64,000 nucleotides of DNA from an uncultured Candidatus Saccharibacteria bacterium (GCA_964514595.1 CAZEQZ010000001.1:43914-107913); one strand, 5' to 3'. Counted from the stretch's first letter, positions 4,870-62,671 are shown. Program-made: numbers and translations. Notes: a model not told the origin generated them from the letters alone.

Positions 4870-8003
<3,134 letters not shown>

Positions 8004-8247: not shown

Positions 8248-8260
8248 TTTAGAAATTGAA

Positions 8261-9183: not shown

Positions 9184-9405
9184 AGGGGGGTTGTCATTTG
9201 CACTGACGTAACACAGGGTATCTTCCGCCGTTTCGTAATAGAGAACAAAGTGTAAAGCAAATTAGCAGGAGAGGTTATAGTCGAATATAAATCTCAAATA
9301 GTCCTTGGCGGAGGGAAATAGTGGTGAGTAAAACAGTTGTACGAGATTCGGTGTGATTATGAATGTAGTATAATAATTAAGGTATAAATTTATGAAAATA
9401 TTGAT

Positions 9406-11071: not shown

Positions 11072-11155
11072 TATGATATAATCCAACTGCAACATTTTAG
11101 ATTAGTAGTATGCAAATACCAGTTGCATGTATTGCATCACCAATAGGAAAATCCT

Positions 11156-12388
11156 ATGGATAATAAAAAACAAAAAGATTCATATTCACAGATAGATCAG
11201 TTTCTTGCTGATGGCGAGAACCAAATAAAAACATTCTCAAGGGGAGATATAGTAGAAGGCACCGTAGTGGATGTCAGAGATGGCCTTGTAGTTGTAGATA
11301 TTGGTTTTAAATCAGAAGGAATAGTGGCCGGGAGGGAGTTAAAGAGCGATGTTTTGGATTGGAGGGAGTTGAAAGAGGGAGACAAAATAATAGTATATGT
11401 TGTTAAGCCAGAAGATGAAGAAGGTCAATTGGTTCTTTCCATTAAGAGAACACAACAGGCCAGTGCATGGTTGAACCTAGAGAAGGCTAGAAAAGAAAAT
11501 GATGTGATAGAGACGGTAGTTGTAGAGTCTAATAATGGTGGTTTGATAGTAGAGATAGGTAAGGATATCAGAGGCTTCATCCCAACATCTCAGTTAGATG
11601 CTTCTAGGGTGTATTTAAATGGTGTGAGACAGGTGGGGAAGGATATTTCTTCTAAGGTTCAGAAAACTCTAAGCTCTTTGGTTGGAACAAAAATATCTAC
11701 AAGGATTATAGAGTTGGATAGGGAGAAGAATAGAATAATTCTCTCCGAGAAGATGGTCACACAATCAAGAGATCTAGAACAGAGAGAGAAGACCTTAAAT
11801 AAGGTAAAGGAAGGTGATGTGCTAGAAGGCACAGTAAGTGGCATTACACCTTTTGGTATATTTGTTAATGCAGAGGGCTTAGAAGGATTGGTTCATCTTT
11901 CCGAGCTATCTTGGGATAAGGTGGAGGATATTGGTAGTATGTATTCCGTTGGAAGTAAGGTGAAAGTTATGGTAATAGGAGTTTCCGATGGAGGAAAGAG
12001 GGTGGCATACAGTGTTAAGAGACTTCAACAAGACCCTTGGTCAGAAGCAATAGCGAAATATAAGGTAGGGGATATCGTTGAAGGAGAGATTCAAAAGGTT
12101 GTACCATATGGAGCTTTTGTAAGAATAGATAAAGGTCTAAATGGATTAATACATATTTCAGAACTTTCAGATAAACTTGTCAAAGATCCTGCAGATATAG
12201 TCAAAGAGGGTGACAAGGTTAAAGTTAAAATACTTTCCATATCTTCAACAGAGAGACATCTAGGTTTAAGTCTAAAAGCCACATCCTCTAAGGCACCAGT
12301 TAAGGTGGAAGAACCTAAAATCTCCAAGGAAGAGCTAGCCTCTGTGGTGGACTCTGCAGTGGAGGAGGAAATAGGAGAGAAAGAGTAA
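11156..12388 (+). CDS. rpsA: 30S ribosomal protein S1
   Basis: Four S1 RNA-binding repeats (GDIVEGTVV..., GDVLEGTVSGITPFGIFV..., GDIVEGEIQKVVPYGAFVRI...). Confidence 0.85.
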   Translation: MDNKKQKDSYSQIDQFLADGENQIKTFSRGDIVEGTVVDVRDGLVVVDIGFKSEGIVAGRELKSDVLDWRELKEGDKIIVYVVKPEDEEGQLVLSIKRTQQASAWLNLEKARKENDVIETVVVESNNGGLIVEIGKDIRGFIPTSQLDASRVYLNGVRQVGKDISSKVQKTLSSLVGTKISTRIIELDREKNRIILSEKMVTQSRDLEQREKTLNKVKEGDVLEGTVSGITPFGIFVNAEGLEGLVHLSELSWDKVEDIGSMYSVGSKVKVMVIGVSDGGKRVAYSVKRLQQDPWSEAIAKYKVGDIVEGEIQKVVPYGAFVRIDKGLNGLIHISELSDKLVKDPADIVKEGDKVKVKILSISSTERHLGLSLKATSSKAPVKVEEPKISKEELASVVDSAVEEEIGEKE

Positions 12389-34800: not shown

Positions 34801-35240
34801 CTGATGGTAGTAATAATACCGGGACAATGATCGCAGATAGTGATGCCTCATACAATTCTATGAACTACTATCAATGGAATAGTTCCGAATCTACACTACA
34901 AGATTACGATATCAGGCTAAGATTTATGCTTCCCTCTAACTTCAGTGGTTGGGGAAGTGGTGGAGTTACATTCAATTTTGTAACAGAAGCTACTGCAACA
35001 TCTAGTAATGAATTAGATTTCTATATATTTGAGGAAAGCTCTGGAAGCGTAGATGGAAGTTCGGAGAACCAAGTTTCCTCCTCTGCAGGGATATGGACCT
35101 CAACAACAATCTTAGGCTCATCCCTCACAGAGTGTGTCTCAGCAGGAGATGTATGTATGTTCGTTATTAAAATGTCTTCTAGAAATGATAATTATGTAAG
35201 GGTAGGTGATATAGAGATAGTATATGACAGGAAACTATAA
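22887..35240 (+). CDS. giant (4117 aa) secreted/surface modular protein: four beta-helix-like modules with Gly/Cys-rich tracts and two CBM-like beta-sandwich domains
   Basis: N-terminal hydrophobic signal/anchor. Four copies of an approximately 450-aa module (GDEVLIINLQGTYSAM.NVGNYETL...NTQRVM.QRVP.Y...FYPS.WNG.KGGV.FFRA.G ... GGGI..I......V.G..S..G ... GG.GG.GRIAIYY). Two copies of an approximately 280-aa domain ending (I/F)Y(L/I)DNV. Uninterrupted ORF. Confidence 0.85.
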   Translation: MQEKYCLKLVKNIFIFLGILLPTFFLFFIEKSYALSTNTINLQGKIVRNDTGYEGLNVTTGNPSCVVAGSSNDTCDFRVRYYSAASGGTLFLTEVFSNKEIGQYNGAFNLSLGSDPSPTAGSYSSLDALVAAENTVYIEIGFDPAGGNSYTETFTRMSLQATAFAMRSKYASHANTAFQFDTAANSSGYASPSAGMVYWDTTDSTLKVYDGASWVDIGSGGTGSSLWTQGTGFAYLTTLTDSLVLGADSYTAIGSDTYSTYVAGLGARPPFSFDMGAERASISGDTAKSGLTVYSNYTSTGAWPLVLFKTESSNFDNLVLEIVQDGTGHLMSLKKGSTEVFAFENPMTFFIRPRDDAPTIYENRLYNVGGTLYWNGTALGGGSSSLWTDDGTYTYLTDTTDDVIIGGDSALNAQFYFDVANGRLGIGTGTPTSRLDIAGASSIISNSSGDITISPDETVVIKAQNTDPNNLMEWQNSSGTVLSLINQSGYASLGKSTGSTTAMLSLGANTASVAQLNLAASSAIDVSSPNTGDLWYNGTNLYFYDGTDHIDLLVGNSDGVGLFSEHGSVASGSYLNVEHNDDTYNILADGWICVGGSENESCTGGNWKNIKEESISIRHALKEDWEDAGSTGIIRTDVRDTSVSLSPAFNPGTGADGDVTVQYNTNINTTSLSAGRSCADGGDAVNYNITAFPSSTTATLSATPSTGCLAVGDEVLIINLQGTYTAMDNVGNYETLEIANVSGTTITFKTAKKNYYGDGLADDTNLGTSTSTQRVMLQRVPNYRNLTVNSGVNFYPSTWNGVKGGVIFFRASVSANINGTIDVSGIGYRGGSAGGNLQGSSGGEAFCGPGGAGATTTTNGTSGAGGGGGYNGYLGGNGYCGGGGGASNGSTLGLGSANRGGSGGGSEYAAAGSGGGYGTAGSGGANYTAGSNAPSGGTNASGDGTLSTSVTYSGGGGGGTYGEANLSKLFFGSAGSGGTVGTAGVSGSGGIGGGIIAVYSKSVVVSGMVSSRGTGGASATVANAAGAGAGAGGSILLSGESVNTGTSFVGASGGAGGTSTGWVGVNGGAGGDGRIAIYYSDSYSGTTANPSVTNYYQSGYNSYGIYNSPVIATPNAQTYDNIRWSQDLDTYGNISIQTRSGNSTNPLDASWEEWRPFVVNQNYIMLESADTHTNWSGTNATVSEGDVTRNVDYFEDEDETTATNVTKVVSSTNGGYVEAAVSNEDLSNYDYITAWVRASQIGNTLRLGFGESAGTEQYEDITVDASDTWQKIYWDISDIATGDRDDVTVLRLTNKTGSSNTIYLDNVRAEKLITDNDGSDISSTPNNYMQYRVVFSTTNLAYQPILRNITISYNSGYRIVIHDNNNVRVYNYSGSTKYLKLDVATSGGGGGGSGTGFVAGVATSTIADGEDAVAFTFNTPTSYTDPSSKLLSVMNNSVEKMYLDSNGNLYVAGSVIAGNGFGSGLINNTGGAVTERTLVTIDPSTNDSFITTNIENQMGAFGVVTGVSVSGDINKNGVCDDGDTCMVVFEGITNVNTYDATTASVGDYIYSYSEYGYAKASSEQENGLIGMVMSTENAASGYLKIVFFTQNKSAADFYLNVGFDKNAYRDMYTLLAKDYEALSLAERRGLIESNQSESIMFDTFVDGLKIDSENSDVGLDIYNQKMGLWGGLSLTDSTTDMASNRYFGTTGATLIDAAYYYDRSQTGEVGQDSTIGDLITDGIDPYWYKGVSYISGTTALSAKYNGLLFNVTGAYGTSSEHGSIEIEVASQTVSGITANISSSDGTCTATGATLTFGNEYSFTSGSCSGSSIKITPQRTDYAVGDKFKIASWYLEPTTANDRGSRRDFPERSIIIPTATAGDIYITIVDYDTQRVWMKFNSDTDAIATGNILIDNADKDINKIFMINGDMYVDFTTVSSNVDAIVVGFARDDAWAVNGATWYKYDTNIGLRNNGDGYTTTTNPYTFSDGDGSGVSFVGLDYEVFGSSTIKGIDSNAEDTTGIYYSNPVTFQYNSNKAYLWMNAYIDPDDTSGDISVSVSNDGGSTYVAGSLIRATGSTVKEYEYSFNLADSDNEYIVKIELERGSSKKSTVYVNSWGLAQMDISGVGGGGLFTNTENAVPHKGYVEVLHGQNTNNILATGWVYNTNLARWIKTSESSISVSHVKDSDWLKDPDMIPATPIWVDPITGEPGELDAGTGADGDITVSTNSDINVNKLITSRNAACPDAPNYNITTFSVDGTEATITPAADTANSCLSPGDEVLIINLQGTYSAMVNVGNYETLTIDSIDVTGTTITFTEAKSNYYGGNINDDSNLGTATNTQRVMMQRVPQYDDVTVNAGINFYPSAWNGIKGGVMFFRATGEVNINGTIHADGKGYLGATQHGGYSYAGGGGGEAFCGEGGDGSTTNGTDGAAGGGGGASGGLGGDGYCGGGGGGRVIEDPGRGSVGQGGAGGGGGRYSGGGGGGYGTPGSGGHRSFDNYGEDGGANTSGDGGVSTGTGAGGGGGGSYGIESLSKLMLGSGGGRGGNQTSPMLGGAGGNGGGIVNIAGGTIRVNGALSSNGVNGANGASGTSYYTGGGGGGAGGSVRVEGGVVNIGSSLLAANGGDGGIGRISNVATQNGGAGGDGRIAIYFATSYVGISGTPTVTNFYTVGEEVVQNPSSGSDGDLTLSTAGTVNINRTSPMGVRSCSDGGDAVNYNIVAFNVAGNEATLSVSPSSGCLDSGDEVLIINLQGSYSAMNNVGNWEILTIDEVVGTTVTFTTTKTKYYGNNLDDDTNLGTATNTQRVMLQRVPQYEDVTIGVGVTLEPDAWNGVKGGVMFFKASGSVSINGNISASSKGFLGGVTEGGYNHGGGQGGDSLCGPGGSPGRVVSGGDGAGGGGGYTAGTGDGYCGGGGGGEPTGGIGSVTSGGAGGGGGRRAGGGAGGYGTAGTSGTYNALTYGATDGGTNSSGDGGAVATGIGPGGGGGTYGDEQLTKLFLGSGGGRGGNNASPQLGGAGGNGGGIVYIVADSVTVSGTLASNGATGGNGASGTSYYTGAGGGGSGGAVRVEGRTVNIGSSALTVTGGSSGVGRFNNTAVNNGGTGGSGRVAVYYTDTYSGTSGTPAVTNFYELDPSTVGDEDVEAPTGIIRAMIGLTEISLESGIDVGDGRDGNVTVAYNTNINRTSLIAGRSCADGGDAVNYNVLAFNSAGTEATLARAPSLGCLNAGDEVLVINLAGTSSAFFNVGNYETFRVQSITGTTVRFTTAKTKYYGNNPNDDSNLGVANNTQRVMLQRVPNYQNLTVNNGVTFYPDEWSAEAKENSVYREGKGGVMFFRATGSVNINGTISASGKGYRGGGRTVQGIYEGFKGESYTGGYNLYTSWSPNGGGGGGGGDYSVSSNTEAGGAGGSYGTKGQDGGAGGTFGDQTKGIAGDIYAVGEDLSDRIYFGSGGGAGSNDNDTANGPYGGAGGDGGGIIGVFSGSIVVSGSVANNGDNGEAGYRGSASDNETGGGGGGAGGSIYLAGAGVSVGSSLVTVNNGIGGLAGETAAAEAGGVGGLGRIAIHYSETYSGTSGNPTVTNFYEGSSYSYGMYHSNEIVTKGAGSFSDLRWDYNNNGYGRISVQTRTGATADSTDGSWEEWRSTSPTYEAQSLNDAENASSWVGTNVVVSDGDVTRDVDFFEDEDEFTTGSITKMISSTNGGYAESTISSTDLSGYEYITFWVKASVLGQKLSFSMGESSGDEHTEDIVIDSLEWQKVYWDLADIPAENRDAITKLRITNLSSVINTFYIDNVSAEGRGTSSIDRINSTPNDYLQYRVIFTTTDSRYRPELQSISFTYNIGYEIVQIDTNRVRLYNYSGYTQKLRLDIATGGLMIDLRSSLGSSTVNLAPTIAQQDWDDYTNSLWVNKTGTEGNFMRFQQYGVDKFVLSADGTMEMRGGTITLGDTGLKGSIRFNTGTNKLEFSNDGSTWIPVADSLSAVTLAAEYSGAVLSADGSNNTGTMIADSDASYNSMNYYQWNSSESTLQDYDIRLRFMLPSNFSGWGSGGVTFNFVTEATATSSNELDFYIFEESSGSVDGSSENQVSSSAGIWTSTTILGSSLTECVSAGDVCMFVIKMSSRNDNYVRVGDIEIVYDRKL
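24790..26175 (+). repeat. beta-helix/Gly-rich module copy 1 (coding repeat)
   Basis: Amino-acid-level repeat, about 60-70% identity in core blocks to the copies at 29462, 30860, 32310 and 48805. Confidence 0.6.
29462..30830 (+). repeat. beta-helix/Gly-rich module copy 2
   Basis: As above. Confidence 0.6.
30860..32220 (+). repeat. beta-helix/Gly-rich module copy 3
   Basis: As above. Confidence 0.6.
32310..33575 (+). repeat. beta-helix/Gly-rich module copy 4
   Basis: As above. Confidence 0.6.
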
Positions 35241-35271: not shown

Positions 35272-38200
35272 ATGAGAAAATTTGATGTATTAAAACTTAA
35301 AAAAATATCTAAGCGAGGAAGATTAAGAGTATTAATACTTCTTCTCATTGGTATTTTGGTATCAGTATCTGCTCTGTGGTTTTCTTCCCTATCTAAGACC
35401 AAGCCAAATGATGATATATTTTTCCTAGATACCAATAGTGGGGCAATACTTGGTAACAAAAATCCAACATTTAATGTAAGCTTTGGAAAGAGGGATGAAC
35501 CTGAAAAGCAGTGGGTTAGATTTGAAGCCCAAGTTAGTTCACAAAATCCGTTCGAAGGGAAAAATGAGAATCTTTTCACAAAATTAGCAGACTTGTTCAA
35601 ACGGGAGAAAGAGTACGGCATAGAAATGAGTTTGAATGGTGTTGTACTTAGTGAAACAGAGAAACTAGATTTGGATGGAAAAGAAGAGGTAATTAAAACT
35701 GTTGCAGACATTCTTGGAACAGATGATGTTAGAACGTCTACGGAGTTGATAGAAAGTGGTAGGGTAATAGGGGAGTATAGTGAGGAAGCAGTATCAAAAA
35801 AGAGTGTATTAAACAAAAATGTTGCGGATGGGGTTGATATTGAGTATCAGATATTGGAAGGTTTGGGCTTAAAGGAAGAAATAGTGATACGAAATCTAGA
35901 TGAATATACAAAAGGTTGTGGAGAGGATTTAATGGGGTGTAAGTTGCCTCTTAATGAGTTTAATTTTGATCTCAAACTGGATGAGGGTTTAGAATTACGG
36001 AAAGGTTGGTTAACTTTGAAGGGTGGGAGTACACAGACATACTATTTCACTGATAAGGACGGTAATTATGTAGCGCATTTTCTTCCCAACTGGGCGATAG
36101 ATAGTGCTGGAGAGAAGACATATGATGTTCCTATGCAAGTAGAAGATGCAGGTGGCGGTAACTACAGGATTAAGGTTATAGTTGATATAGAGTGGTTATT
36201 TAGTCCTGGAAGAGTATATCCAATAAGGATAGATCCAAGCATAGTTCATGATACTAAGAATCAATTCGATCAGGGAATCTTTGATAGAACTAATAGTTCT
36301 GATGATCCTGCAATTACTATTACTAACGCAAACAATTTCTTGCATGAAATATATGCATTCACATCAGATGGGACATTTTCTCCACCTCTAGGAGTTACTG
36401 AAGTAAAAGTATTAGTTGTTGGGGGAGGAGGAGGTGGTGGATCATCAGGGGGTAGTGCAGCAGGAGCAGGTGGTGGTGGTGCAGGCGGTTTAGTATGGGA
36501 AGATTCATATGTATTTTCATCTTTAGAAATAGAAGAAGGAGTACCAATAACCGTGGGTAGTGGAGGAAGTGGAGGGGCTAGTGGTGATAGCAATGGACAG
36601 AATGGTGGAGATAGTACATTTGGTACATTAACAGCCATTGGAGGAGGTGGTGGTGGACACAGAACTTCGAATGGTGGTGATGGAGGTTCTGGTGGTGGTG
36701 TAGGTGGTGCTACAGTAACACCTGGGTCTGGAACTGTTGGACAGGGGCACGATGGAGGAAATGGCACTACCAGTGGAGATGGTTCTGCAGGGGGTGGTGG
36801 TGGTGCCGGAGAAGCTGGGTATGATTTTATTAGTGGAAGCTTTGGAGGAGCTGGTGGAGTTGGTATTTATTTAGGGAATATGTTAGGTGATAGTTTAGGA
36901 GATGATGGTTGGTTTGCAGGAGGAGGAGGTGGCGGTGCTACCGTGCATGCTGGTGGTACAGGAGGAAAAGGTGGTGGTGGTACTGGTGGTGTTTCGACCT
37001 CTAATGCCCAAGATGGTGTGGCAGGTACAGGTGGAGGTGGAGGTGGAGGTGGAAGAAGTGGATCCTCTGGTGGTTCTGGTGGCTCTGGTATAGTTATCAT
37101 TGCTATACCCAAAAAACACTCATATGGTCAATATATATCACCCGTTATAGATTTTGAAGACTCATACTACGTCGAACATATGTCTTTAGATATATCTGGT
37201 GTTCATACAGGTGGTGGGGAAAATATGTATAGTACAGTGGGTTTGGAGGCTCAATGGAATTTCAATGAAATATGGGGTGATGTTGCAGAAAATAATGATG
37301 GAACTTGCGGAAGCTCTTGTAATGCTAATCTTGTTAATTTCTCAAATACATTAGCACAGGATATACTGCCTATGAGTGGTTGGACATATATTAATAGGAA
37401 ATGGGGGAATGGTTCCATAATGATTGATGGAGTAGATGATTATATTAATTTAACCACACCAATATTCACTGCGGAAAATGGCTCTTTCTCTTTCTGGTTT
37501 AGAAAGGATATAGCTCCATCCTTTTTAGAGTGCTTCTTTGGTTATTTCGAGACATCAGTAGCAGACTCTTGTGTCGGTATAAACGATGAAGGGAAGATAG
37601 TTATTGAAGATCTAGCTTTTGCGAGCAATATTTCCTCCGAACAATCATATGCCGATGGAGAGTGGCATCATGTTGTTGTTAATGGTAACTATACAGGAGA
37701 TACTTTAGAGCTTTGGGTCGATGGGATTTTGATATCTACGTCTAAATGGGAACAGCCTGCCTATATGACTACTCAATTGCTTGGTGCTAGATATAATGAA
37801 AGTACTGGGACCCCGGAAAATCTCTTTAGAGGGATGATAGATACGGTTGTAAAGTACAATCGTCCTTTATTAGCTTCGGAAATACTTTCTAATTACCAAT
37901 CGGGCAATGTTGAGTTCAGATACAGAACTAGTAACGATGGTTCGACATGGGGCGTTTGGGAGGGTGGTGAGGAGGCAGATGTAGATATAACCCAGGATTA
38001 TACAAAATGGTCTGACTCAGTATCCGATACTCGTATACTGCAACTGAGTAATGATTCGAACATAAAGGTTGGGGTAAATGATAGTCTAAGAGTTGATTCA
38101 GATTATACTAAAGTTGATACAGTCAACGGCTTGGTCGGACTTTGGCATTTAGATGAAGAGTCCGGTTCTGGTGCGTATCTCCTAGATTATAGTGATAACG

Positions 38201-40182
38201 ATAATCATGGGACTCCAAATGGCACTACATATGTAGAGGGCAAAATAGGGGGAGCTAGGGATTTCGATGGGTCAAGTGATTATATTAGTACAGATTTCAG
38301 TAGTGAGGCAAGCTCTCTTTTCGCAGACTCAAGTGGATCTTGGACTGTAGAAGCATGGTTTAAACATAAAGGGGGGATGAGCTCTGATGGTGTTATAGTT
38401 GGGAGGGGAGGGGGAACTGGGACTTCAGCTACATTTGGAATATTTGTAAATAGTAGTGGGGCACTTCGTACTGTTCTAAGAGGTTCCTATACCACCTTGA
38501 TGAGCAATGTTGCTAATGATCAATGGTGCCATGTTGTAGTAACTTGGACGGGCGGTGAAGCTAGAGGTTATGTAAATGGAGAGGATGTTGGAACTCTTTC
38601 TGTTGGATCTGCTTCCCTACAATCAAATAATCTCGTTATAGGGGCTACCAACAATGGCTCAAGCGCGCGCTATAGAGGTCAGATAGATGAGGTTAGAGTA
38701 TACGAGACTGCTAGAAGTGGGAAAGAAGTAGCAGAGTCATACAGGATGGGTAAAAATCATTATGTATACAGTACACTAGAAACGGGTATGGATCTGTCAG
38801 AAAGCACAAAGATACCGTTTTGGATAGCATCTGACAAATTGGGCAGTAACATAGATTTGATTGTGGGGAATTCTCCAAGCTCTAACTATTTGACAGATTC
38901 TAATGTAGTTGGATTATGGAAGATGGATGAGATGTCAGGTTCTGGTGCATACATTAATGATAGTAGCGGAAATGATAATCATGCTACTCCATCGGGAACA
39001 ACTTACACAGAAGGAAGGGTTGGAGGTGCAAGGTATTTTAATGGAACAAGTGATTACATGCTAACTAGTGATTTTGGTTTTGATTACGACAACATTACGA
39101 TAGAGGCTTGGGTTAAACCGGAAGATTTAAGTGGAAGAAGAACTCTCTTAGATCTTGGGGCTGAAACCACTTTGGTTCCTCAGTTAGAGGTGGGAACATG
39201 TGATGGTGGATCTAACGCAATCTGTGTTGTCACGCCTGGTGTATGGCAGGCTCAAACAGTCGACAATGTTATCTCAGAAGGAGAGTGGGTACATATTGCC
39301 TATACTAAGGAAGGAACAGGAGCTACACATAAAATATATGTTAACGGAGTAGAGCAACCTCTTGTAACGAATAATAGTGAGACCTATAGCTCTACGTCGG
39401 TAGGAAAGAATATTGGAAGACGTGGTGATAATACGCAGTTTTTTAATGGGAACATAGATGAGCTTCGCATCTCTGATATAGTACGCACAGGTGAGGTAAT
39501 TAGGGAAGCATATGAAATTACAAAGAGAAAGTATTCTATAAAGATTGACTTCAAAGCGGACCTTCAGTTATCTAACTTGATTTCAGACTCAAATGATCTA
39601 TCCTTTACAATTAGTGAGACCTCATATGGCACAACAAAGGAGATAGAGAACTTAAGTCTCTCGGATAGGATAATTATAAAAGAATATGCCGATTCTGCAG
39701 AGTATATTGCACAAGGCGTCGTAGACAGCATAAACGAAGACACCGGAGCAGTGACAGTAGAGCAGTGGGAATTAGGTAGTACATTTCCTTCTGGTGGATA
39801 TTCAGAGGACGCAGTTGTATTTAAATGGCAGGAAGAAATATTTGATATTAGGGATATTCTAGACACCCAAAGAGATGATATATCTACGTTTATGCTTGTA
39901 CTAAATAATCAAGTAGGGGCAAACTACTGGATAGATGGTATAAGGAGTGCCAAATATCTTGCACCTCTAGATTTAAGTCAAGGTTTAGGAGATCCAACGC
40001 AGTATTTCCAGTATAAGATTATGTTCTCAACCTATGATGAGTACATAACCCCCACTCTAAACAAGGTCCAGATAGACTATACCTCTGAAATACTTGTGGA
40101 GCCACCACTGAGAAGAATAATGAGACATGGTAAATGGTTCTATACGGGAGAGGAGCAGCCCTTCTGGTGGGCACAGGAGTAG
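35272..40182 (+). CDS. giant (1636 aa) surface protein: N-terminal TM, Gly-rich tract, three concanavalin-A-like/LamG (Laminin_G_3-type) lectin domains, C-terminal CBM-like tail
   Basis: Three repeats, each with (W.LDE.SGSGAY..D.S.NDNHGTP.GTTY.EG..GGAR.F.G.SDY...), W..EAW.K and W.H...T core blocks; the third ends G.IDE.R.Y/IS. Tail shares Y.QY.I.F.T motif with the upstream giant gene. 32-nt spacing suggests co-transcription. Confidence 0.85.
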   Translation: MRKFDVLKLKKISKRGRLRVLILLLIGILVSVSALWFSSLSKTKPNDDIFFLDTNSGAILGNKNPTFNVSFGKRDEPEKQWVRFEAQVSSQNPFEGKNENLFTKLADLFKREKEYGIEMSLNGVVLSETEKLDLDGKEEVIKTVADILGTDDVRTSTELIESGRVIGEYSEEAVSKKSVLNKNVADGVDIEYQILEGLGLKEEIVIRNLDEYTKGCGEDLMGCKLPLNEFNFDLKLDEGLELRKGWLTLKGGSTQTYYFTDKDGNYVAHFLPNWAIDSAGEKTYDVPMQVEDAGGGNYRIKVIVDIEWLFSPGRVYPIRIDPSIVHDTKNQFDQGIFDRTNSSDDPAITITNANNFLHEIYAFTSDGTFSPPLGVTEVKVLVVGGGGGGGSSGGSAAGAGGGGAGGLVWEDSYVFSSLEIEEGVPITVGSGGSGGASGDSNGQNGGDSTFGTLTAIGGGGGGHRTSNGGDGGSGGGVGGATVTPGSGTVGQGHDGGNGTTSGDGSAGGGGGAGEAGYDFISGSFGGAGGVGIYLGNMLGDSLGDDGWFAGGGGGGATVHAGGTGGKGGGGTGGVSTSNAQDGVAGTGGGGGGGGRSGSSGGSGGSGIVIIAIPKKHSYGQYISPVIDFEDSYYVEHMSLDISGVHTGGGENMYSTVGLEAQWNFNEIWGDVAENNDGTCGSSCNANLVNFSNTLAQDILPMSGWTYINRKWGNGSIMIDGVDDYINLTTPIFTAENGSFSFWFRKDIAPSFLECFFGYFETSVADSCVGINDEGKIVIEDLAFASNISSEQSYADGEWHHVVVNGNYTGDTLELWVDGILISTSKWEQPAYMTTQLLGARYNESTGTPENLFRGMIDTVVKYNRPLLASEILSNYQSGNVEFRYRTSNDGSTWGVWEGGEEADVDITQDYTKWSDSVSDTRILQLSNDSNIKVGVNDSLRVDSDYTKVDTVNGLVGLWHLDEESGSGAYLLDYSDNDNHGTPNGTTYVEGKIGGARDFDGSSDYISTDFSSEASSLFADSSGSWTVEAWFKHKGGMSSDGVIVGRGGGTGTSATFGIFVNSSGALRTVLRGSYTTLMSNVANDQWCHVVVTWTGGEARGYVNGEDVGTLSVGSASLQSNNLVIGATNNGSSARYRGQIDEVRVYETARSGKEVAESYRMGKNHYVYSTLETGMDLSESTKIPFWIASDKLGSNIDLIVGNSPSSNYLTDSNVVGLWKMDEMSGSGAYINDSSGNDNHATPSGTTYTEGRVGGARYFNGTSDYMLTSDFGFDYDNITIEAWVKPEDLSGRRTLLDLGAETTLVPQLEVGTCDGGSNAICVVTPGVWQAQTVDNVISEGEWVHIAYTKEGTGATHKIYVNGVEQPLVTNNSETYSSTSVGKNIGRRGDNTQFFNGNIDELRISDIVRTGEVIREAYEITKRKYSIKIDFKADLQLSNLISDSNDLSFTISETSYGTTKEIENLSLSDRIIIKEYADSAEYIAQGVVDSINEDTGAVTVEQWELGSTFPSGGYSEDAVVFKWQEEIFDIRDILDTQRDDISTFMLVLNNQVGANYWIDGIRSAKYLAPLDLSQGLGDPTQYFQYKIMFSTYDEYITPTLNKVQIDYTSEILVEPPLRRIMRHGKWFYTGEEQPFWWAQE

Positions 40183-48406: not shown

Positions 48407-50134
48407 ATGTTTAGGATAAATCAGAAGGCTAAACTCTTTTTAGCTGTTGTTGTATTTCTTCTATTAGCACCATTGACAATCTACTATGTAGTGGATGGAG
48501 TTTTTGACTTAAGAAGTAGGGCAGGTGATCCTGATGTATTACCTGAGGAGTTTAAAATTGCTGATTTGAATGCAGATAACAAAATTACTATAGCTGACTT
48601 TAGTATATGGTTGAGTAATTTTAGACAATTCAAATTAAATCCGGCAGCATTCAATGCCATGAGTGATTTGGATAAGAATGCCGCTATAACGATCTCCGAT
48701 TTCGCGATATGGTTAGATCTATGGAGAAAGTATAAGGTATACAATTTCGGGGGAGATGGAGGAGTGACACCTCCTATTATTGTAGAGTCTCCGCTATTTG
48801 GAACTGGTACCGATGGAAGTGTTTCAGTAAGTGCTGATACGAATATTAATACCTCAACAATTTCATCAACTAGATCTTGTGCAGATGCCAAGTCATATAA
48901 TGTCGTTAAGTTTGATTCTGATACGGTAGTACAGGTCAATGAAGGTGTTAGTGAGGCTTGTATAAAGACAGGTGATGAGGTTTTGGTTTTGGGTCTAGCT
49001 GGAACAGAAACAAATGTGGAGACAGTGGGGAATTATGAGACATTTATAGTGGCAAGTGTAGCGGGGGATAAAATAACTTTTGCAACGGCCAAAACTAAGG
49101 CATTTGGTAATAAGGCTATAGTACAAAGAGTTCCTCAGTATGAGAATGTTAGTATTGCTGCAGGAAAGAGTCTATATCCTTCTGCTTGGGATGGGACCTC
49201 TGGTGGTGTTGTTTTCTTTAGGGCAACAGGGAGGGTAAGTGTAGAGGGGACAATACATGCAGATGGTATGGGGTATAGAGGTGGAGCTGCATCTTTGAAT
49301 AATGGTCAAAATTCTAAACCTGGAGAGGGAGCTATCCCTTCTAGTGGTACAAATGGTCAGGGTGGAGCTATTGGTCAGAATGGTTTTGCTGGGACGTTTA
49401 GTGGTGGAGGTGGTGCAGGGACTTCTATGAAAACAGGTGGAGTAGCTTCCACACTTCTAGGTTCTACAGGAGGAGGTGGAGGTGGTGGTGCAAGTAGCGG
49501 GTCAGGGAACGATTTCGGTGGTTTTGCAGGTGGAGGAGGAGGTGGTGGAAATGGTACAGGTGGAATAGGGGGTAAAAGCGCAGAGTATGGGACTAGTACT
49601 GTTGGTGCTACGGGTACAGATATGGCAGGTGCTGGTGGTAAAGCAGCAAGGGGATCTAAAACAGTAACCGCGACAGGTAGCACTGTTTATAAAAAACAAG
49701 CAGGAGGAGGTGGTGGCGGCGGTGCAACTATAGGTACTGCGAATCTTTTAAAACTAACTTTTGGAGGAGGAGGTGGTGGTGGTGGCTGCGGAACTGGTGT
49801 TGAAAAACAAAACAGGCAGGGAACTTCTGGAACAAATGGAGGTGGCATTATATATATTGCTGCCAATGAAATAACAGTTACAGGTGTTATTTCTGCCAGA
49901 GGGCTAGATCCCGTTGTTCCTAGTTATCGTGCTGGAGGGCAGGGTGGTGGTGGTGCAGGTGGTTCTATTAAGTTAATAGGAAATATCTTGAATTTAGGAA
50001 CTAACAAAATTTTAGCAACTGGTGGCGCAAATACAACAACTGGAGGAACTGGTGGGATGGGTAGAATTGGAATACAGTATATGAGTACATTTACTGGATC
50101 AACTAATCCAGTCTCTGCAAACTCAAAGATTTAA
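48407..50134 (+). CDS. secreted protein with N-terminal dockerin-like Ca-binding repeat pair followed by one beta-helix/Gly-rich module (paralogue of giant-protein modules)
   Basis: Signal/TM peptide. Then ADLNADNKITIADFSIWL and SDLDKNAAITISDFAIWL, both fitting D-x-[DN]-x-[DN]-x-x-I-x-x-x-D. Then GDEVLVLGLAGTETNVETVGNYETF...VQRVPQYENV...VFFRATG...GGGIIYIAANEITVTGVISARG...GGMGRIGIQY. Confidence 0.75.
   Translation: MFRINQKAKLFLAVVVFLLLAPLTIYYVVDGVFDLRSRAGDPDVLPEEFKIADLNADNKITIADFSIWLSNFRQFKLNPAAFNAMSDLDKNAAITISDFAIWLDLWRKYKVYNFGGDGGVTPPIIVESPLFGTGTDGSVSVSADTNINTSTISSTRSCADAKSYNVVKFDSDTVVQVNEGVSEACIKTGDEVLVLGLAGTETNVETVGNYETFIVASVAGDKITFATAKTKAFGNKAIVQRVPQYENVSIAAGKSLYPSAWDGTSGGVVFFRATGRVSVEGTIHADGMGYRGGAASLNNGQNSKPGEGAIPSSGTNGQGGAIGQNGFAGTFSGGGGAGTSMKTGGVASTLLGSTGGGGGGGASSGSGNDFGGFAGGGGGGGNGTGGIGGKSAEYGTSTVGATGTDMAGAGGKAARGSKTVTATGSTVYKKQAGGGGGGGATIGTANLLKLTFGGGGGGGGCGTGVEKQNRQGTSGTNGGGIIYIAANEITVTGVISARGLDPVVPSYRAGGQGGGGAGGSIKLIGNILNLGTNKILATGGANTTTGGTGGMGRIGIQYMSTFTGSTNPVSANSKI
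48805..50131 (+). repeat. beta-helix/Gly-rich module copy 5 (in separate gene)
   Basis: Same block order as the copies inside 22887..35240. Confidence 0.6.
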
Positions 50135-50162
50135 TTAATATGAATTAAGGAAGGATAATTAT

Positions 50163-50770
50163 TTATTCTCCCTTTTTCTCTGTTAATCCTCCAATGGCCA
50201 ATATGAAAGCTATTAGAGTTATTACTCCAGCCAATACATATAAAGCATTGTCAGAAAGAAATGTAGATACTTTGTCGAACAAAGAATCTTCGCTTGTTTC
50301 TATCTCTTCTGTTACTTCCAAATCATCAGAACCTAGATTCTCAGGTTTATTAACGTTTAATATCTCTCCAATAATCAATGAGCCAAAATCTAATGTTTTC
50401 TCATCAACATAGAAGAAATAATCCTCTGATTCTGTCTCATATGTAACAGTAGCTAACACTCCAGACATCTCTGTTTCTGAATCATTAAAGCATTCGATGC
50501 TTATCTTTTCATCATCAAACTTTGCATTACCTCCGAAAGTACAAAATCCTTCGGAAGGTGTAACCTCCTTTATGGTTACATCTTCAGAATACAAGATGTT
50601 CATATCTAAACCATCAACATAGCTACCATTAGAGTGTACTATTACAGAAAGAGTGCCTTCCTCCCTATTATCTTCCAATTCTATACTTACAGCAGCATAT
50701 ACTTTGCTTGAGAAAATAAAACCAAAACCTACGAATAATAACAATCCAAAGATATATTTCTTGAACATAA
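50163..50770 (-). CDS. small cell-surface protein: signal peptide, cohesin-like beta-sandwich domain (tentative), acidic linker, C-terminal TM anchor
   Basis: Signal peptide MFKKYIFGLLLFVGFGFIFSSKVYA (start at 50770 preferred over 50822). About 130-aa domain with alternating beta pattern and a GVLATVTYE block. C-terminal LYVLAGVITLIAFILAIGGL + KKGE. Confidence 0.55.
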
Positions 50771-50906
50771 TTAAGATTAATAATAAATTATTCCTTAATC
50801 CAGAGTAGCAGAGTGAAAACATAATGTAAAGGGTTCCTTAATTTAATTGACAAAGGGAAATATTTATTGCAATATATTAATTAATGTAAATTTAAGAAAT
50901 ATTAAT

Positions 50907-51614
50907 ATGAACTGTCCTAGAAGAAAATCTTTCTCTTTGGTATTATTTCTTCTTTTCCTCTCGGTATTTATTTCTTCTCCGACACATGTTCAGGCGGATT
51001 ACGCCTCCATAGCTCTATTACCCTCTACAGGGACTATATATGCAGACTACACGGCTCTTTCTTTAGTCGTAAATAGTGGGTCGGATGAGTTCTACGGTGT
51101 TGATGTTAATATTGCATTTACAGGAAGTGTTGTATATATGGAATCAACTGGGGCTAGCAGATGTAGTAGTTTTGTAACGACCGGTGGGGCAGGTACAATT
51201 AATGTTGAGTGTCTCTCTACTGCTCATGCAGAGGGGGAGACATATAGCGGTGTTGTTGCAACTCTCTATTTTAGATCTACAGGCACAGGAACCTCTACAT
51301 TCACCTTCACAAGTACAGATCCAAATATATTAACTAAAACGGGGGGGACATATACGCTCTCAACTGAAAATAATCCCGTACCAAGAGGTGGGAGTGCTGG
51401 TGGTGGTTTGCCAGAATCGGGCATATTTGATGACACAAGAAGCATCATAGCGATAGGGGCTGTACTCATGTTAGTTGGTATATTCTTTAATCAGGTAAAT
51501 CAATATACTGTGTCACTACTAGGCAATATCTCCGGAAAAGTGAAGGAGAGTAAACAGAAGAGGGAAGAGGAGAAAATTTCTAAAAGAAGGGGTAAATTAG
51601 AGAAAAGATTTTAA
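50907..51614 (+). CDS. small cell-surface protein: signal peptide, cohesin-like domain (tentative), LPESG sortase-type sorting signal with TM and basic tail
   Basis: Signal peptide MNCPRRKSFSLVLFLLFLSVFISSPTHVQA. Domain containing FYGVDVNIAFTGSVVYMES and YSGVVATLYFRSTGTGTSTFTF. LPESG, then hydrophobic IIAIGAVLMLVGIF, then K/R-rich tail. Confidence 0.55.
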   Translation: MNCPRRKSFSLVLFLLFLSVFISSPTHVQADYASIALLPSTGTIYADYTALSLVVNSGSDEFYGVDVNIAFTGSVVYMESTGASRCSSFVTTGGAGTINVECLSTAHAEGETYSGVVATLYFRSTGTGTSTFTFTSTDPNILTKTGGTYTLSTENNPVPRGGSAGGGLPESGIFDDTRSIIAIGAVLMLVGIFFNQVNQYTVSLLGNISGKVKESKQKREEEKISKRRGKLEKRF

Positions 51615-51620
51615 ACTGCC

Positions 51621-53006
51621 ATGTTCAAAAAACAAGAAGATTCTTATTCAAATAGATATATAGCGCCTAAGGGTTGGAAACCGAAGAACCCTGATGAGGA
51701 CTATGTAATAACATATTTAGATATTGAACTAGCTGATGGGGTAGAGATGAATCAGTTTGAGACTGTTGTTGCCGCATGCGCTGCAGAAAGCTCTACTGGT
51801 ACATGGACAAAGGTGTATGACGGAAAGGATTCAGGTGTCCCTATGGCAGACAAAATGAGGGCTATTGCTTTTGATCTAGAACCTGAAACAAAAACGTTTA
51901 AGATAGCATATAGGCAAGATTTGTTTGAAACGGACAATATGTCGGGCTTATTGGCTGGTATAGTGGGGAATGTTGGAGGAATGAAAATGCTTAAAGCGTT
52001 AAGATGTTTGGATATTAGATTTCCTAAGTGTATGGTGCAGGCATTTCCTGGCCCTCAGTTTGGTATAGATGGAGTTAGGGAACAGCTTTTGGTAGAGGAG
52101 GGTCCATTACTTCTCACGGTTCCTAAGCCTAAGATAGGGAGAACCGCAAAGGAGCAAGCGGAATTGGCTAGGATTCTATTTACAGCTGCAAATGGAGAGT
52201 ATCACGGTATAAAAGATGATGAAAATTTAACGAGTCTCTTTTTTAACACATTTGACGAGAGGTGTGAAAGAGTACATAAGGTAAGGAGAGAAATAGAGGA
52301 GAAGAGTGGAAAGAGAAAATTCTTCCTATGTAATATAACTCATTCAAATCTGGATACAATGATATCTAGGGCTGACAAAATTAAAGCACAAGGCGGTAGG
52401 TGGATGATGATGGATGTTATAACTACTGGTTTTTCCGCTGTTCATACAATGAGATTAAAAAATCCAGGTTTAGCTATTCATGCACATAGAGCTATGCACA
52501 GTCTCTTCACTAGAGAGTCCGGACCTGGTGTACATGATAAGGGGGAAATTGTTGATTTCTCAATGTCCATGGTTGCAAATGCAAAAATAATGCGTCTTCT
52601 GGGTGTAGATTCCTTCCATGGTGGTGCTCCTAAAACTAAGATGGAAAACTATGGAGAGCCTAAATTAATAAGGGATGTTTTACAACTTGATATAACTCCT
52701 GAGTCGTCTATAACATTAGGACAGAACTGGTTTGGAATGAAGCCGGTATGGCATGTTGCATCTGGAGGTCTTCATCCTGGAAGTATACCTGAGGTTCTGC
52801 ATCAACTCGGAGAGGACATAATGATACAGTGTGGTGGAGGAGTATTAGGTCATCCTTGGGGCATAGAGGCGGGAGTAGAGGCTGTTGTACAAGCTAAAGA
52901 GATAGCATTGGGTAGAGGTAATGTTGATGATTGGATAAAAGAGAATCCGGATAGTGCACTAGCCAAAGCAGCACAGCATTGGGGATTTGATCCTAGAATT
53001 GTTTAA
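51621..53006 (+). CDS. rbcL: ribulose-1,5-bisphosphate carboxylase/oxygenase large subunit, form III or II/III-like
   Basis: GTWT. VPKPKIG (K175/K177 region). GIKDDEN (carbamylated K201, D203, E204). IHAHRAMHS (H294/R295/H298). ASGGLHPG. QCGGGVLGHPWG. All catalytic blocks present, so not a RuBisCO-like protein. Confidence 0.9.
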   Translation: MFKKQEDSYSNRYIAPKGWKPKNPDEDYVITYLDIELADGVEMNQFETVVAACAAESSTGTWTKVYDGKDSGVPMADKMRAIAFDLEPETKTFKIAYRQDLFETDNMSGLLAGIVGNVGGMKMLKALRCLDIRFPKCMVQAFPGPQFGIDGVREQLLVEEGPLLLTVPKPKIGRTAKEQAELARILFTAANGEYHGIKDDENLTSLFFNTFDERCERVHKVRREIEEKSGKRKFFLCNITHSNLDTMISRADKIKAQGGRWMMMDVITTGFSAVHTMRLKNPGLAIHAHRAMHSLFTRESGPGVHDKGEIVDFSMSMVANAKIMRLLGVDSFHGGAPKTKMENYGEPKLIRDVLQLDITPESSITLGQNWFGMKPVWHVASGGLHPGSIPEVLHQLGEDIMIQCGGGVLGHPWGIEAGVEAVVQAKEIALGRGNVDDWIKENPDSALAKAAQHWGFDPRIV

Positions 53007-61516: not shown

Positions 61517-62671
61517 ATGATTTTTAATAGGTCGAAAAAGGTTATGCAATTAGAGGAGGTTACAAACCTTTTAGATGAATTAAGGTTACCTACATCCCTC
61601 GTATTTACACCTACAAACCTAGATATTGAGAAAAAGAAATTTTTCAATTCTGATACATATAATCCTCAATTTCAGTATAGGATAGTTAAGAATGTAAATA
61701 GGGATGTATTAAAGAAATTATCTTCAGTGGAGGAGGTATCTGATGTGGATCCTAGGATTTCTGATTTCTATATTGAGCTTATACGTTCAAAAAAGGAAGC
61801 AAATGATTTGATGTATGCAGTAGGGGATAATGAGCTTATTACAGAAATCTCAACCAATAGGTATGGAAGACCTTCTGTTAAATTATTTAGAAATGCGTGT
61901 AGGGTGTTAAGGGGTAAGATGGATATCTATAATGTAGCAAAGCGAGTTAGTGCTGAGGAAAAGCCTCTTAAATATGATGAGATTGAAAGAGTTTTTGGAA
62001 TCGTATTTAAAGAATTGGGATTGGATGGATGGGCAGTAGATAAGTCTATGAATATTGCAAAGAATGGGGTAAAGGTTGGTATTAAGACAAAGAAGATTTT
62101 AGTAGATCCTAATATAGAGAGAAGTAAATTCAAGTTAAGGAAGACTATTATTCATGAGGTTGGTACGCATGTGTTAAGGGCTGAGAATGGTCTTAAGAGT
62201 GGTTTGGAAGCATTGAGTAAACCTAATTTGCCTTCCTATTTAGATGTAGAGGAGGGACTTGCTACTTGGAATGAGAATAATATGGGCCTATTGACAGAGA
62301 ATTGGTTAAAGAAGAAGGCTGCATTGGTATATGCTTTATATGTTGGAGAGGATATGAGTTTTAGACAACTATACAACTGTATGTTAGGAGTACTTCCTAA
62401 GTATGCCTCTTTTGATGTTGTTTATAGAGTAAAAAGGGGATTGAGTGATACATCGTATGGAGGGTTGTATGCTAAGGATATTGCATATTTTAGAGGTTTT
62501 AGAAGAGTGTTGAATAAATTAGAAAAGGATATATCTTTGTATGAATTACTTTACTCAGGAAAGATAGGTTTTGAGCAATGTGAATGGGTTAGGGAAGGCT
62601 TAATACCTAGGGCTAAGAATATTCCCACAAAGGAAAGATGGAATGAAATATTTAAGAAGGCTGGGATATAG
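61517..62671 (+). CDS. DUF1704-like putative zinc metallopeptidase (HExxH + QEGLA-like motif)
   Basis: IIHEVGTHVLRAENG (HExxH). LDVEEGLATWNE (QEGLA-like). Confidence 0.5.
   Translation: MIFNRSKKVMQLEEVTNLLDELRLPTSLVFTPTNLDIEKKKFFNSDTYNPQFQYRIVKNVNRDVLKKLSSVEEVSDVDPRISDFYIELIRSKKEANDLMYAVGDNELITEISTNRYGRPSVKLFRNACRVLRGKMDIYNVAKRVSAEEKPLKYDEIERVFGIVFKELGLDGWAVDKSMNIAKNGVKVGIKTKKILVDPNIERSKFKLRKTIIHEVGTHVLRAENGLKSGLEALSKPNLPSYLDVEEGLATWNENNMGLLTENWLKKKAALVYALYVGEDMSFRQLYNCMLGVLPKYASFDVVYRVKRGLSDTSYGGLYAKDIAYFRGFRRVLNKLEKDISLYELLYSGKIGFEQCEWVREGLIPRAKNIPTKERWNEIFKKAGI

Follow-up and report, generated by a model that had tools for sequence, protein, structure and literature searches.

Three genes, here designated A, B, and C, lie between positions 48,407 and 51,614 of the window, i.e., the whole 64-kb stretch of DNA that was analyzed. 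Gene A has a public entry, annotated "hypothetical protein", from a contig of 760 kb. The genes and their features are as follows:

48407..50134, plus strand: gene A (ORF), putative dockerin-bearing cargo protein, 575 aa
48407..48496, plus strand: A residues 1-30, basic n-region and ~21-residue hydrophobic helix (leader or signal anchor, from sequence) with a conserved (T/A)PL
48503..48523, plus strand: A residues 33-39, FDLRSRA, corresponding to the family-wide FDxRSxA motif
48560..48736, plus strand: A residues 52-110, dockerin-like duplicated Ca-loop and helix pair, loops D53-D64 and D87-D98
48794..49276, plus strand: A residues 130-290, predicted AgmC_N-like beta domain of the cargo (AF2 pLDDT ~85-95)
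49277..50131, plus strand: A residues 291-575, Gly-rich by composition (33% Gly), with beta-helix-like repeats at the end
50163..50768, minus strand: gene B (ORF), putative membrane-anchored single-cohesin protein, 201 aa
50349..50693, minus strand: B residues 26-140, cohesin-like beta domain (fold assigned by homology to C)
50181..50243, minus strand: B residues 176-196, C-terminal TM anchor (from sequence), with an acidic linker before it and TEKKGE after it
50907..51614, plus strand: gene C (ORF), putative single-cohesin protein with an LPXTG-type anchor, 235 aa
50997..51359, plus strand: C residues 31-151, predicted cohesin-fold beta sandwich
51408..51422, plus strand: C residues 168-172, LPESG sorting motif (LP[DEQK][ST]G as family consensus, then [LI]FDD)
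51441..51611, plus strand: C residues 179-235, TM helix (179-194) and an unusually long conserved basic tail ending in KRRGKLEKRF

All three ORFs had been recognized in a first-pass annotation of this DNA, as had a duplicated 18-aa segment with a Ca-binding loop pattern in A. The two copies, ADLNADNKITIADFSIWL at residues 52-69 and SDLDKNAAITISDFAIWL at residues 86-103, are identical at 10 of 18 positions. They are separated by 16 residues, not by the ~12 that had been proposed, and the first begins ~22 residues after the hydrophobic leader instead of right behind it. The loops read D53-L-N-A-D-N-K-I-T-I-A-D64 (loop 1) and D87-L-D-K-N-A-A-I-T-I-S-D98 (loop 2). In each, EF-loop positions 1, 3, 5, and 12 are occupied by acidic or amide residues and position 9 by Thr. 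The Ca ligands at positions 1 and 12 do not vary in either loop across 22 family representatives, and D-F-x-x-W-L is invariant behind each loop. A therefore contains the two tandem loop-helix segments of ~22 residues (12-residue loop, ligands at 1, 3, 5, 9, and 12) by which dockerins are defined. A regular expression for one loop-helix gave 0.29 matches per composition-shuffled ORF set of the window, and none of 200 shuffles contained a pair within 60 aa. Of all ORFs in the actual six-frame translation of the window, ORF A alone has such a pair.

The Pfam profile Dockerin_1 (PF00404, EF-hand clan; cut-off 22.9 bits) gave 13.2 bits for the full protein A and 21.1 bits for the isolated module, and the NCBIfam profile dockerin_GC gave 20.1 bits against a cut-off of 29. 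Five of the six other modules scanned singly passed Dockerin_1 (29.0, 34.8, 29.2, 23.6, and 24.2 bits), and orthologous modules range from 23.6 to 34.8 bits. Among 39 family representatives, Dockerin_1 was the commonest Pfam match (11/39, versus 3/39 for EF-hand_1). When the module profile was searched against 1.84 billion proteins, C-terminal domains outside the family were recovered with e-values from 1e-9 to 1e-6, and all 10 of the domains sampled were Pfam Dockerin_1 above the cut-off. The dockerin assignment made at first pass thus holds for the orthologues and through the onward matches to true dockerins, while the copy in the window itself stays below the cut-off. A profile search of PDB returned a mix of dockerins and calmodulin-type EF-hand pairs. 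These sequence comparisons support the placement of the module in the dockerin/EF-hand superfamily, with Pfam-verified dockerins as its nearest relatives outside its own family, and by this measure dockerins, and not EF-hand pairs of the calmodulin type, are its closer kin. The AF2 model of full-length A was built on a 7-sequence alignment and is of poor confidence at residues 12-128 (pLDDT 28-46). In this region, DSSP assigned helices at 62-77, 79-83, and 96-110, with no long helix before either loop. The three-helix fold of dockerins, in which a linker helix joins two loop-helix F-hands and entering E helices are absent, is therefore putative for A.

The N-terminal module of A is kept in orthologues. 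Its leader, which includes a helix at residues 6-30 in the AF2 model (DSSP, low confidence), is conserved across 22 family representatives. The FDxRSxA pattern was matched in 30 of 32 representatives, with one further truncated variant, and S37 and A39 are invariant in 22. The motif was confined to dockerin-bearing ORFs among the loci examined. To judge from its sequence, FDLRSRA may be cleaved by signal peptidase I (at S-x-A) or may serve specifically in sorting. Behind the module, residues 130-290 match NCBIfam gliding_AgmC_N with an e-value of 3e-19, a match that falls far short of the cut-off of that model, and this beta domain is common to P0043-P0046, which are without a dockerin. Residues 291-575 are mostly of low confidence in the AF2 model. 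Foldseek with the A model returned weak matches to phage tailspike and GH110 beta-helices (e-value 5e-4, TM 0.12), to which no weight was given for function.

The combination of leader, FDxRSxA, and dockerin heads ~40 clusters (50% identity) of proteins 215-1729 aa in length. The module occupies residues 1-115 and the cargo is unrelated, including GH10 xylanases, an esterase-like hydrolase, C11 peptidases, LamG, RCC1, BspA-LRR, Big_2, and Cys-rich domains. By sequence, the module is homologous to the dockerin/EF-hand group and is fused in a modular manner to varied cargo. As expected at first pass, further dockerin-bearing proteins are present, several per related genome (L023 and L024 have three each).

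B was correctly placed on the minus strand in the first-pass annotation, but its end had been put at 50770, two positions too far and not in frame; the end is 50768. The predicted architecture was borne out: both B and C have classical signal peptides, B has a C-terminal TM anchor, and C has LPESG followed by a TM helix and a basic tail. The TM helix of B is followed by a short basic tail, and the C-terminal TM anchor is conserved in all 8 homologues that make up the B family. C has 40 homologues, and those with names are from Candidatus Dojkabacteria. Homologues that open with MNC... back the ATG start of C. The LPXTG anchor of C is complete in motif, hydrophobic segment, and positive tail, and P169 and G172 are fully or almost fully conserved across 38 sequences. 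The basic tail of ~41 aa is conserved (KRRGKLEKKF) and atypical for LPXTG anchors; this type of anchor and tail recurs on other surface proteins in L002. Among the ORFs scanned in the 64-kb window, no sortase was found.

The block GV(L/V)AT(V/L)(T/Y)(Y/F), pointed out earlier as common to the two proteins, is real (GVLATVTY at B 103-110 and GVVATLYF at C 115-122). B and C are paralogues, with a BLASTP e-value of 4e-5 and a match by hhalign of the C-family and B-family alignments (probability 95.2%, e-value 2.7e-8, 134 columns). The AF2 model of C has a mean pLDDT of 85.6, rising to ~97 in the beta domain. Foldseek with this model gave 2xdh as the best match (e-value 6e-8, TMt 0.67), and 48 of the best 50 matches were cohesins. 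Two independent structure comparisons agree on the cohesin fold, and the modeled domain has the nine-stranded flattened beta-sandwich (jelly-roll) of ~120-150 residues that is characteristic of cohesins. The identity of the C-type domain to solved cohesins is 8-17%. The CLIPPER/DUF11 adhesin domain was considered as the fold and rejected, as it ranked below 12 cohesins and had no Pfam match in B or C.

Pfam Cohesin (PF00963) had no match in B or C even at an e-value of 10 or less, and neither PDB sequence searches nor C-family profile searches had a cohesin among their matches. Nothing informative was obtained from PDB with A as the query either. A weak bridge was provided by an ORF in an unrelated contig, L020, which was reached with the C profile (e-value 6.8e-4) and is itself Pfam Cohesin with 37.2 bits; hhalign of the C family with this cohesin gave an e-value of 4e-4 over 115 columns with a probability of 35%, and hhalign of the B family with this single cohesin found nothing. 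The cohesin likeness first suggested from strand pattern is accordingly upheld at the level of fold, by the model for C and by homology for B, and not at the level of Pfam. The C and B profiles revealed no further cohesin in the window. Two neighboring giant proteins (4117 aa and 1636 aa) were considered as scaffoldins and rejected; they had no match to the C or B cohesin profiles and no Pfam cohesin or dockerin.

In 11 independent contigs or genomes (the window, L001, L002/3, L004, L005, L006, L007, L008, L024, L025, and L026), a dockerin gene of this family lies beside a gene of B type, C type, or both, so the neighborhood noticed in the window is a repeated one. An extra case, WCY37_02465 with WCY37_02475, was inferred from locus tags alone. 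The adjacent loci represent at least three different genomic contexts, and L025 shares the synteny of the window but has other cargo on its dockerin gene. In one related genome the cassette is missing at the syntenic site, and some dockerin genes, in L021/22 and L023, lack a cohesin gene in the surrounding 10 kb. A scan of genome contigs with the narrow pattern of the dockerin alignment gave 2 loci, and a metagenome scan gave 14 loci, 2 of which are in the A-module family.

It is likely, with a probability of roughly 70%, that A, B, and C encode a minimal, lineage-specific cohesin-dockerin surface display system of a Dojkabacteria-like CPR bacterium. A would be exported through its N-terminal leader, which would either be retained as a signal anchor or be removed by cleavage within FDLRSRA at the conserved S-x-A, and the putatively Ca2+-binding dockerin-like module would be exposed at or near the N-terminus. 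B and C would each display one cohesin-fold domain outside the cell, B tethered by its C-terminal TM helix and C by its LPXTG-type signal, with wall attachment by sortase probable. The dockerin module of A would plug into the cohesin of B and/or C, as the conserved gene neighborhood suggests, and docking would fix the Gly-rich, beta-helix-like cargo on the cell surface. Ca2+ dependence of the binding, cleavage of the leader, and processing by sortase are all predicted on this scheme, and its biological role may lie in attachment to a substrate or a host, of which the episymbiotic attachment suggested at first pass would be one case. As the dockerin module is found on many other cargo domains, the monovalent anchors B and C would serve as general sockets for changeable surface enzymes or adhesins. 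The analysis largely supports the view of the system as a stripped-down, sequence-divergent version of the surface mounting used in cellulose-degrading bacteria.

It is less probable, indeed unlikely, that A is anchored in the membrane by an uncleaved N-terminal helix, that its EF-hand pair is a Ca2+-dependent structural or sensing element, and that the cohesin-fold surface proteins B and C work independently, for example as adhesin or stalk subunits, the three genes being neighbors as co-regulated envelope genes and not through binding of their products. The hydrophobic core of the A leader (~21 residues) is longer than those of the B and C signal peptides (~15-16 residues), and if it were an uncleaved TM anchor, it would by itself hold A on the cell, with no cohesin required; however, the invariant S-x-A 9-10 residues past the helix fits a cleavage site. 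EF-hand Pfam models score the module of the window about as well as Dockerin_1 does, while its nearest outside relatives are extracellular C-terminal dockerins and not calmodulin-like proteins. Certain dockerin-type genes are far from any cohesin gene, but the adjacency to B and C survives different genomic contexts and a change of cargo, which is not predicted by mere co-regulation.

Still less probable is a true assembly of the cellulosome type for polysaccharide degradation, in which B and C would be anchoring scaffoldins mainly for carbohydrate-active enzymes and A an accessory or substrate-binding component. A cellulosome in the strict sense has a multi-cohesin scaffoldin, many dockerin-bearing CAZymes, and usually a CBM, and this set is not present here: no multi-cohesin scaffoldin, CBM, or glycoside hydrolase was found in the window or beside the cassette, and each cohesin protein examined has one cohesin domain. 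GH10-dockerin fusions are present in related genomes, with GH10 xylanase domains in two family representatives (e-value 1.8e-55), an alpha/beta-hydrolase (esterase-like) behind the module in one, and lectin-like LamG in three; the family nevertheless carries mostly non-CAZyme cargo (RCC1, C11 peptidase, BspA-LRR, Big_2, Cys-rich, and Gly-rich). The weak likeness of the A cargo to beta-helix glycanases and tailspikes, and the predicted participation of Dojkabacteria MAGs in carbohydrate degradation (PMC7038595), would also agree with such an assembly. Because GH10 occurs in the module family, the contrast with glycoside hydrolase-bearing cellulosomes is less sharp than it was drawn in the first-pass annotation.

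A chance resemblance, in which the repeat pair and the beta domains would be unrelated to dockerin and cohesin and would reflect coincidence of fold or low complexity, is very improbable, and the present data speak strongly against it: the window's own proteins are sub-threshold in Pfam and solved cohesins are 8-17% identical, but the two structure comparisons concur, orthologues pass the curated dockerin cut-off, transitive matches lead to verified dockerins and a verified cohesin, the motif pair is absent from shuffles, and the gene triad is conserved.

Beyond the display system itself, a more tentative idea is that leader, FDxRSxA, and dockerin form a CPR-lineage-specific "export-and-dock" tag. 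Cargo would be secreted, a peptidase, general or dedicated, would process it at the motif, and it would click into B at the membrane or C at the wall. Adhesins and enzymes would be swapped by recombination, giving a surface for attaching to and feeding on host cells or polymers. The exchange of cargo at one syntenic site is cited as an instance of such swapping. If this idea is true, an ultra-small cell would gain a plug-and-play surface.

CPR bacteria have very small genomes and many depend on contact with other cells, but little is understood about the construction and variation of their surfaces. The locus offers a concrete candidate mechanism built from two small anchors and an N-terminal tag that is portable, being present on dozens of cargo proteins of unrelated type. 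In this lineage, cohesins are missed entirely by standard domain annotation; therefore, cohesin-dockerin systems are probably more widespread outside Firmicutes than is now estimated. As small monovalent parts, these domains could serve as orthogonal protein-docking pairs.

Among known systems, ScaE of Ruminococcus flavefaciens resembles C in that its architecture consists of a signal peptide, one cohesin, and an LPXTG wall anchor. Several different dockerin-bearing proteins, among them a peptidase and non-enzymes, use it as their socket on the surface (PMC5301203). What ScaE binds is an X-module-dockerin dyad located C-terminally in the client, whereas here the dockerin-like module is at the N-terminal end and immediately follows a conserved leader. 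ScaE is part of a multi-scaffoldin cellulosome, whereas no multi-cohesin scaffoldin was seen here, and C differs further in its conserved anchor tail of ~41 residues and in its CPR host. Non-cellulosomal cohesins of Archaeoglobus fulgidus (2xdh) and of Clostridium perfringens glycoside hydrolases (2vo8, 2w1n, and 2jh2) are likewise single modules outside cellulose degradation, but they are found by standard profiles and inside larger enzymes or free proteins, while B and C are dedicated small anchors invisible to Pfam. OlpA and OlpC of Clostridium thermocellum (3ul4 and 4dh2), with single type I cohesins, are monovalent anchors that take enzyme dockerins directly onto the surface; their anchoring is by SLH and not by a TM helix or LPXTG, and their clients have C-terminal type I dockerins.

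Divergent ruminococcal cohesins, missed by InterPro/Pfam and recognized by predicted fold (mBio 2026, PMC13463774; Front Microbiol 2024, PMC11557425), pose the same detection problem as B and C. They belong to large cellulosomes of Firmicutes, in contrast to the minimal two-anchor system of a ~0.76-Mb CPR-type genome proposed here. The claim at first pass that such a system had not been described in CPR-like bacteria was too strong, since cohesin and dockerin annotations are already known in passing for other CPR lineages. Expressed proteins annotated as cohesin I/II and dockerin III were reported from the Shapirobacterales MAG BG1-G2 (bioRxiv 10.1101/2021.08.21.457207), and in the Saccharibacterium Southlakia epibionticum the dockerin-domain envelope protein SEML1_0315 was reported as essential (PMC10633639). 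These are one-line annotations with no analysis of partner, locus, or architecture. Unlike them, the system described here has its own leader motif, predicted cohesins invisible to profiles, and a conserved three-gene cassette.

The three ORFs described in the first-pass annotation are all present in the window. They are designated as A (the dockerin-bearing cargo protein), B (the TM-anchored cohesin-like protein), and C (the LPXTG-type cohesin-like protein), with the following features:

48407-50134, plus strand, gene A, ORF of 575 aa
48503-48523, plus strand, FDLRSRA motif after the leader helix (A residues 33-39)
A residues 52-69, plus strand, repeat segment 1, ADLNADNKITIADFSIWL
A residues 86-103, plus strand, repeat segment 2, SDLDKNAAITISDFAIWL
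50163-50768, minus strand, gene B, ORF of 201 aa (the end at 50770 annotated earlier is out of frame)
50907-51614, plus strand, gene C, ORF of 235 aa

The N-terminus of A consists of a basic n-region and a hydrophobic helix of ~21 residues. A duplicated loop-helix pair had been placed right after this TM segment with a spacer of about 12 residues. The pair is present, with a spacer of 16 residues, and its placement was slightly off: FDLRSRA intervenes, and segment 1 starts at residue 52. The two 18-residue segments are identical at 10 of 18 positions, and each is composed of a 12-residue EF-type loop, with ligands at positions 1, 3, 5, 9, and 12, and the sequence D-F-x-x-W-L after it. When the window ORFs were shuffled with their composition preserved, a single loop-helix motif appeared 0.29 times per set and a motif pair within 60 residues in 0 of 200 shuffles, while in the real six-frame translation of the window the pair is confined to A.

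The full-length A protein was scored below the respective cut-offs by Pfam EF-hand_7 (E 1e-3), Pfam Dockerin_1 (E 0.11), and NCBIfam dockerin_GC (E 6e-4). The isolated window module (73 residues) reached 21.1 bits on Dockerin_1 against the cut-off of 22.9, and modules from related loci exceeded it with 29.0, 34.8, 29.2, 23.6, and 24.2 bits, three of them covering profile positions 2-51 of 57. Dockerin_1 and the EF-hand families share one Pfam clan, and EF-hand models score the modules about as well as Dockerin_1. The choice between dockerin and another EF-hand subfamily is best answered by an exhaustive search, in which a profile of A residues 1-115 was compared with 1.84 billion proteins and 212 were found at E <= 1e-3. 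The top ~50 matches are mostly family members aligned over the full profile at their own N-termini. The lower-ranked matches cover the loop-helix pair alone, mostly at protein C-termini; all 10 sampled have Pfam Dockerin_1 above cut-off at exactly the matched spot, in M4 peptidases, beta-helix proteins, and others. Of the Pfam models, Dockerin_1 matches the most family representatives (11/39, versus 3/39 for EF-hand_1). In an AlphaFold2 model of A based on a 7-sequence alignment, helices at 62-77, 79-83, and 96-110 fit a three-helix dockerin, but carry little weight at the pLDDT of 28-46 over residues 12-128. Judged from these profile comparisons, the N-terminal module of A is dockerin-like.

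Both B and C have a classical signal peptide, as annotated, and their anchors were also confirmed: an acidic linker, a TM helix, and a short tail in B, and LPESG, a TM helix, and a basic tail of ~41 residues in C. Forty homologues of C were collected, without a precomputed Pfam domain in any of them; those with names are all from Candidatus Dojkabacteria. The AlphaFold2 model of C, built from the C-family alignment, has a mean pLDDT of 85.6 and ~97 over residues 31-151. Its top Foldseek match is 2xdh (E 6e-8, TMt 0.67), the non-cellulosomal cohesin of Archaeoglobus fulgidus, and cohesins account for 48 of the best 50 matches. B is paralogous to C, both by BLASTP (E 4e-5) and by profile-profile comparison (E 2.7e-8, probability 95%). 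Pfam Cohesin matched neither B nor C, and PDB sequence searches with either protein returned no cohesin. A weak bridge was obtained in a small search, in which the C-family HMM matched one ORF of the unrelated metagenome contig L020 (E 6.8e-4). This ORF is a Pfam Cohesin (37.2 bits, cut-off 24.1), and hhalign aligned it with the C family over 115 columns (E 4e-4). The cohesin identity proposed earlier for the small proteins thus stands at the level of the fold, from the model of C and by paralogy for B, and not at that of a curated profile; B and C are predicted to have the cohesin fold.

L020 was used as a sequence bridge only. At 4697-11610 it encodes a 582-aa protein with Big_13 that is a canonical Pfam Cohesin, flanked by two proteins whose C-terminal domains are of the Dockerin_1 type, one at 28.4 bits, above the Pfam cut-off, and the other sub-threshold at 19.8 bits.

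The tail of C (residues 195-235, 51489-51611) is helical, conserved, and unusually long after an LPXTG-type anchor, ending in KRRGKLEKKF; sortase action would remove it. The same type of anchor and tail is present on other surface proteins at L002 7853-10036 and 10107-11432, and may thus represent a lineage-specific sorting signal.

The N-terminus of A (residues ~1-115) is a portable tag, shared by the 39 cluster representatives (50% identity), whose total lengths are 215-1729 aa. Its order is a basic n-region, a hydrophobic helix with (T)PL, FDxRSxA, and the dockerin-like pair. In an alignment of 22 modules, S37, A39, D53, D64, D87, D98, W68, and W102 are invariant, and F33, D34, and R36 are nearly so (each at least 90% conserved). 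FDxRSxA sits 2-6 residues past the leader helix and, among the loci compared (window, L001-L008, L021-L026), is restricted to dockerin-bearing ORFs. Its conservation, as seen in the alignment, exceeds what a signal-peptidase site requires, and we know of no sorting signal that resembles it.

The cargo behind the tag includes A-like Gly-rich beta-helices, Cys-rich modules, RCC1 (four representatives), Laminin_G_3 (three), GH10 xylanase (two; E 1.8e-55), Big_2 (two), DUF285/BspA-LRR, Peptidase_C11, alpha/beta hydrolase, and fibronectin-like repeats. Further dockerin-bearing proteins occur in related genomes, several per genome and with varied cargo: three tandem C11-peptidase giants in L023, three tagged genes in L024, and at least three tagged accessions from one MAG. 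In the RCC1 proteins P0088, P0091, and P0098, the first loop-helix alone is intact in the tag, and an extra single dockerin-like loop-helix (for example GDLNNDGKVNMEDFRLWLQAYREYK) is located internally near the C-terminus in P0088 and at the C-terminus in P0091 and P0098. The RCC1 propeller has a dockerin-like loop-helix on each side.

A dockerin-type gene and a gene of B and/or C type are neighbours in the window and ten other loci, and one further adjacency in a Dojkabacteria MAG (WCY37_02465, WCY37_02475) was judged from locus tags alone. The arrangements are as follows:

L001 (Dojkabacteria MAG), synteny as in the window: RlmN / A / B / C / RuBisCO
L025, exact window synteny, different cargo on the dockerin gene
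L002/L003, different context after EF-Ts / RRF / M50 peptidase, two Cys-rich-cargo dockerin genes flanking B and C
L004, two dockerin genes flanking C
L005, L006, L007, and L008, dockerin gene beside a B/C-type gene
L024, B-type gene with three dockerin genes around it
L026, B-type gene, dockerin-Big_2 gene, and C-type gene (protein of 577 aa, Big_2 stalk)

L025 and the window share the site but not the cargo, which has been swapped. Other dockerin genes are dispersed: no cohesin gene was found within 10 kb of the GH10 gene of L021/L022 or the C11 genes of L023. A large number of tags for a small number of sockets, with the genes clustered in part, is the known pattern of cohesin-dockerin systems.

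The gene directly 3' of C (51621-53006, plus strand) encodes a RuBisCO large-subunit homologue, whose L001 orthologue matches RuBisCO_large_N and RuBisCO_large. It lies beside the cassette of A, B, and C in L001 and L025, and in L021, which lacks the cassette between the two, it lies beside RlmN.

Several other features of the window were recorded. A 4117-aa ORF (22887-35240, plus strand) without a Pfam match at E <= 1e-3 is followed by a 1636-aa protein (35272-40182, plus strand) with three Laminin_G_3 and one Gly_rich_2; cohesin and dockerin profiles matched neither protein. A complete rRNA operon occupies 2936-8246 (plus strand), with 16S at 2936-4483, two tRNAs in the 16S-23S spacer, 23S at 4869-8005, and 5S at 8131-8246. 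The match to the 23S model (2925 positions) is 3137 nt long, suggesting insertions of ~200 nt. MreB is followed by a conserved MATCAP-like (PF08014) protein in the window (61517-62671, plus strand), L021 (13593-14759), and L022. In L022 (7263-13568), consecutive ATP-grasp/RimK-type ligases and a 7TM_transglut protein come after it.

We propose that A is exported, possibly with cleavage at S-x-A, and that its dockerin-like module would bind Ca2+ and dock onto the single cohesin of membrane-anchored B and/or of C, the latter attached through its LPXTG-type signal, probably by sortase. Docking would display the Gly-rich beta-helix-like cargo of A, and the same sockets would also serve other tagged proteins. 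This model builds on the folds and homologies, the modularity, and the gene linkage described above, and infers binding, Ca2+ dependence, cleavage at S-x-A, sortase action, and the biological role. In the main rival explanation, the leader of A stays uncleaved as an anchor, and its EF-hand pair binds neither B nor C. This locus is unlikely to encode a cellulosome in the strict sense; a scaffoldin with several cohesins, a CBM, and a glycoside hydrolase are all missing from it and from the window.

Cohesin and dockerin domains have been named in passing for CPR bacteria (bioRxiv 10.1101/2021.08.21.457207; PMC10633639), and the cassette is not described in the literature found on dockerin, and partly cohesin, in Dojkabacteria, Candidate Phyla Radiation, and Patescibacteria. 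Divergent cohesins that evade profile detection are known from ruminococci (PMC11557425; PMC13463774). Ruminococcus flavefaciens ScaE has one cohesin, is anchored through LPXTG and sortase, and serves several dockerin proteins as their socket (PMC5301203). With its single cohesin and LPXTG anchor, ScaE is the closest analogue of C, while the closest structures are the non-cellulosomal cohesins 2vo8 and 2xdh. The proposed docking system differs from known systems in the N-terminal dockerin behind a family-specific leader motif, the invariant DFxxWL signature of the module, cohesins invisible to profiles, two monovalent anchors that are attached in different ways, mostly non-CAZyme cargo, and a host with a tiny genome.
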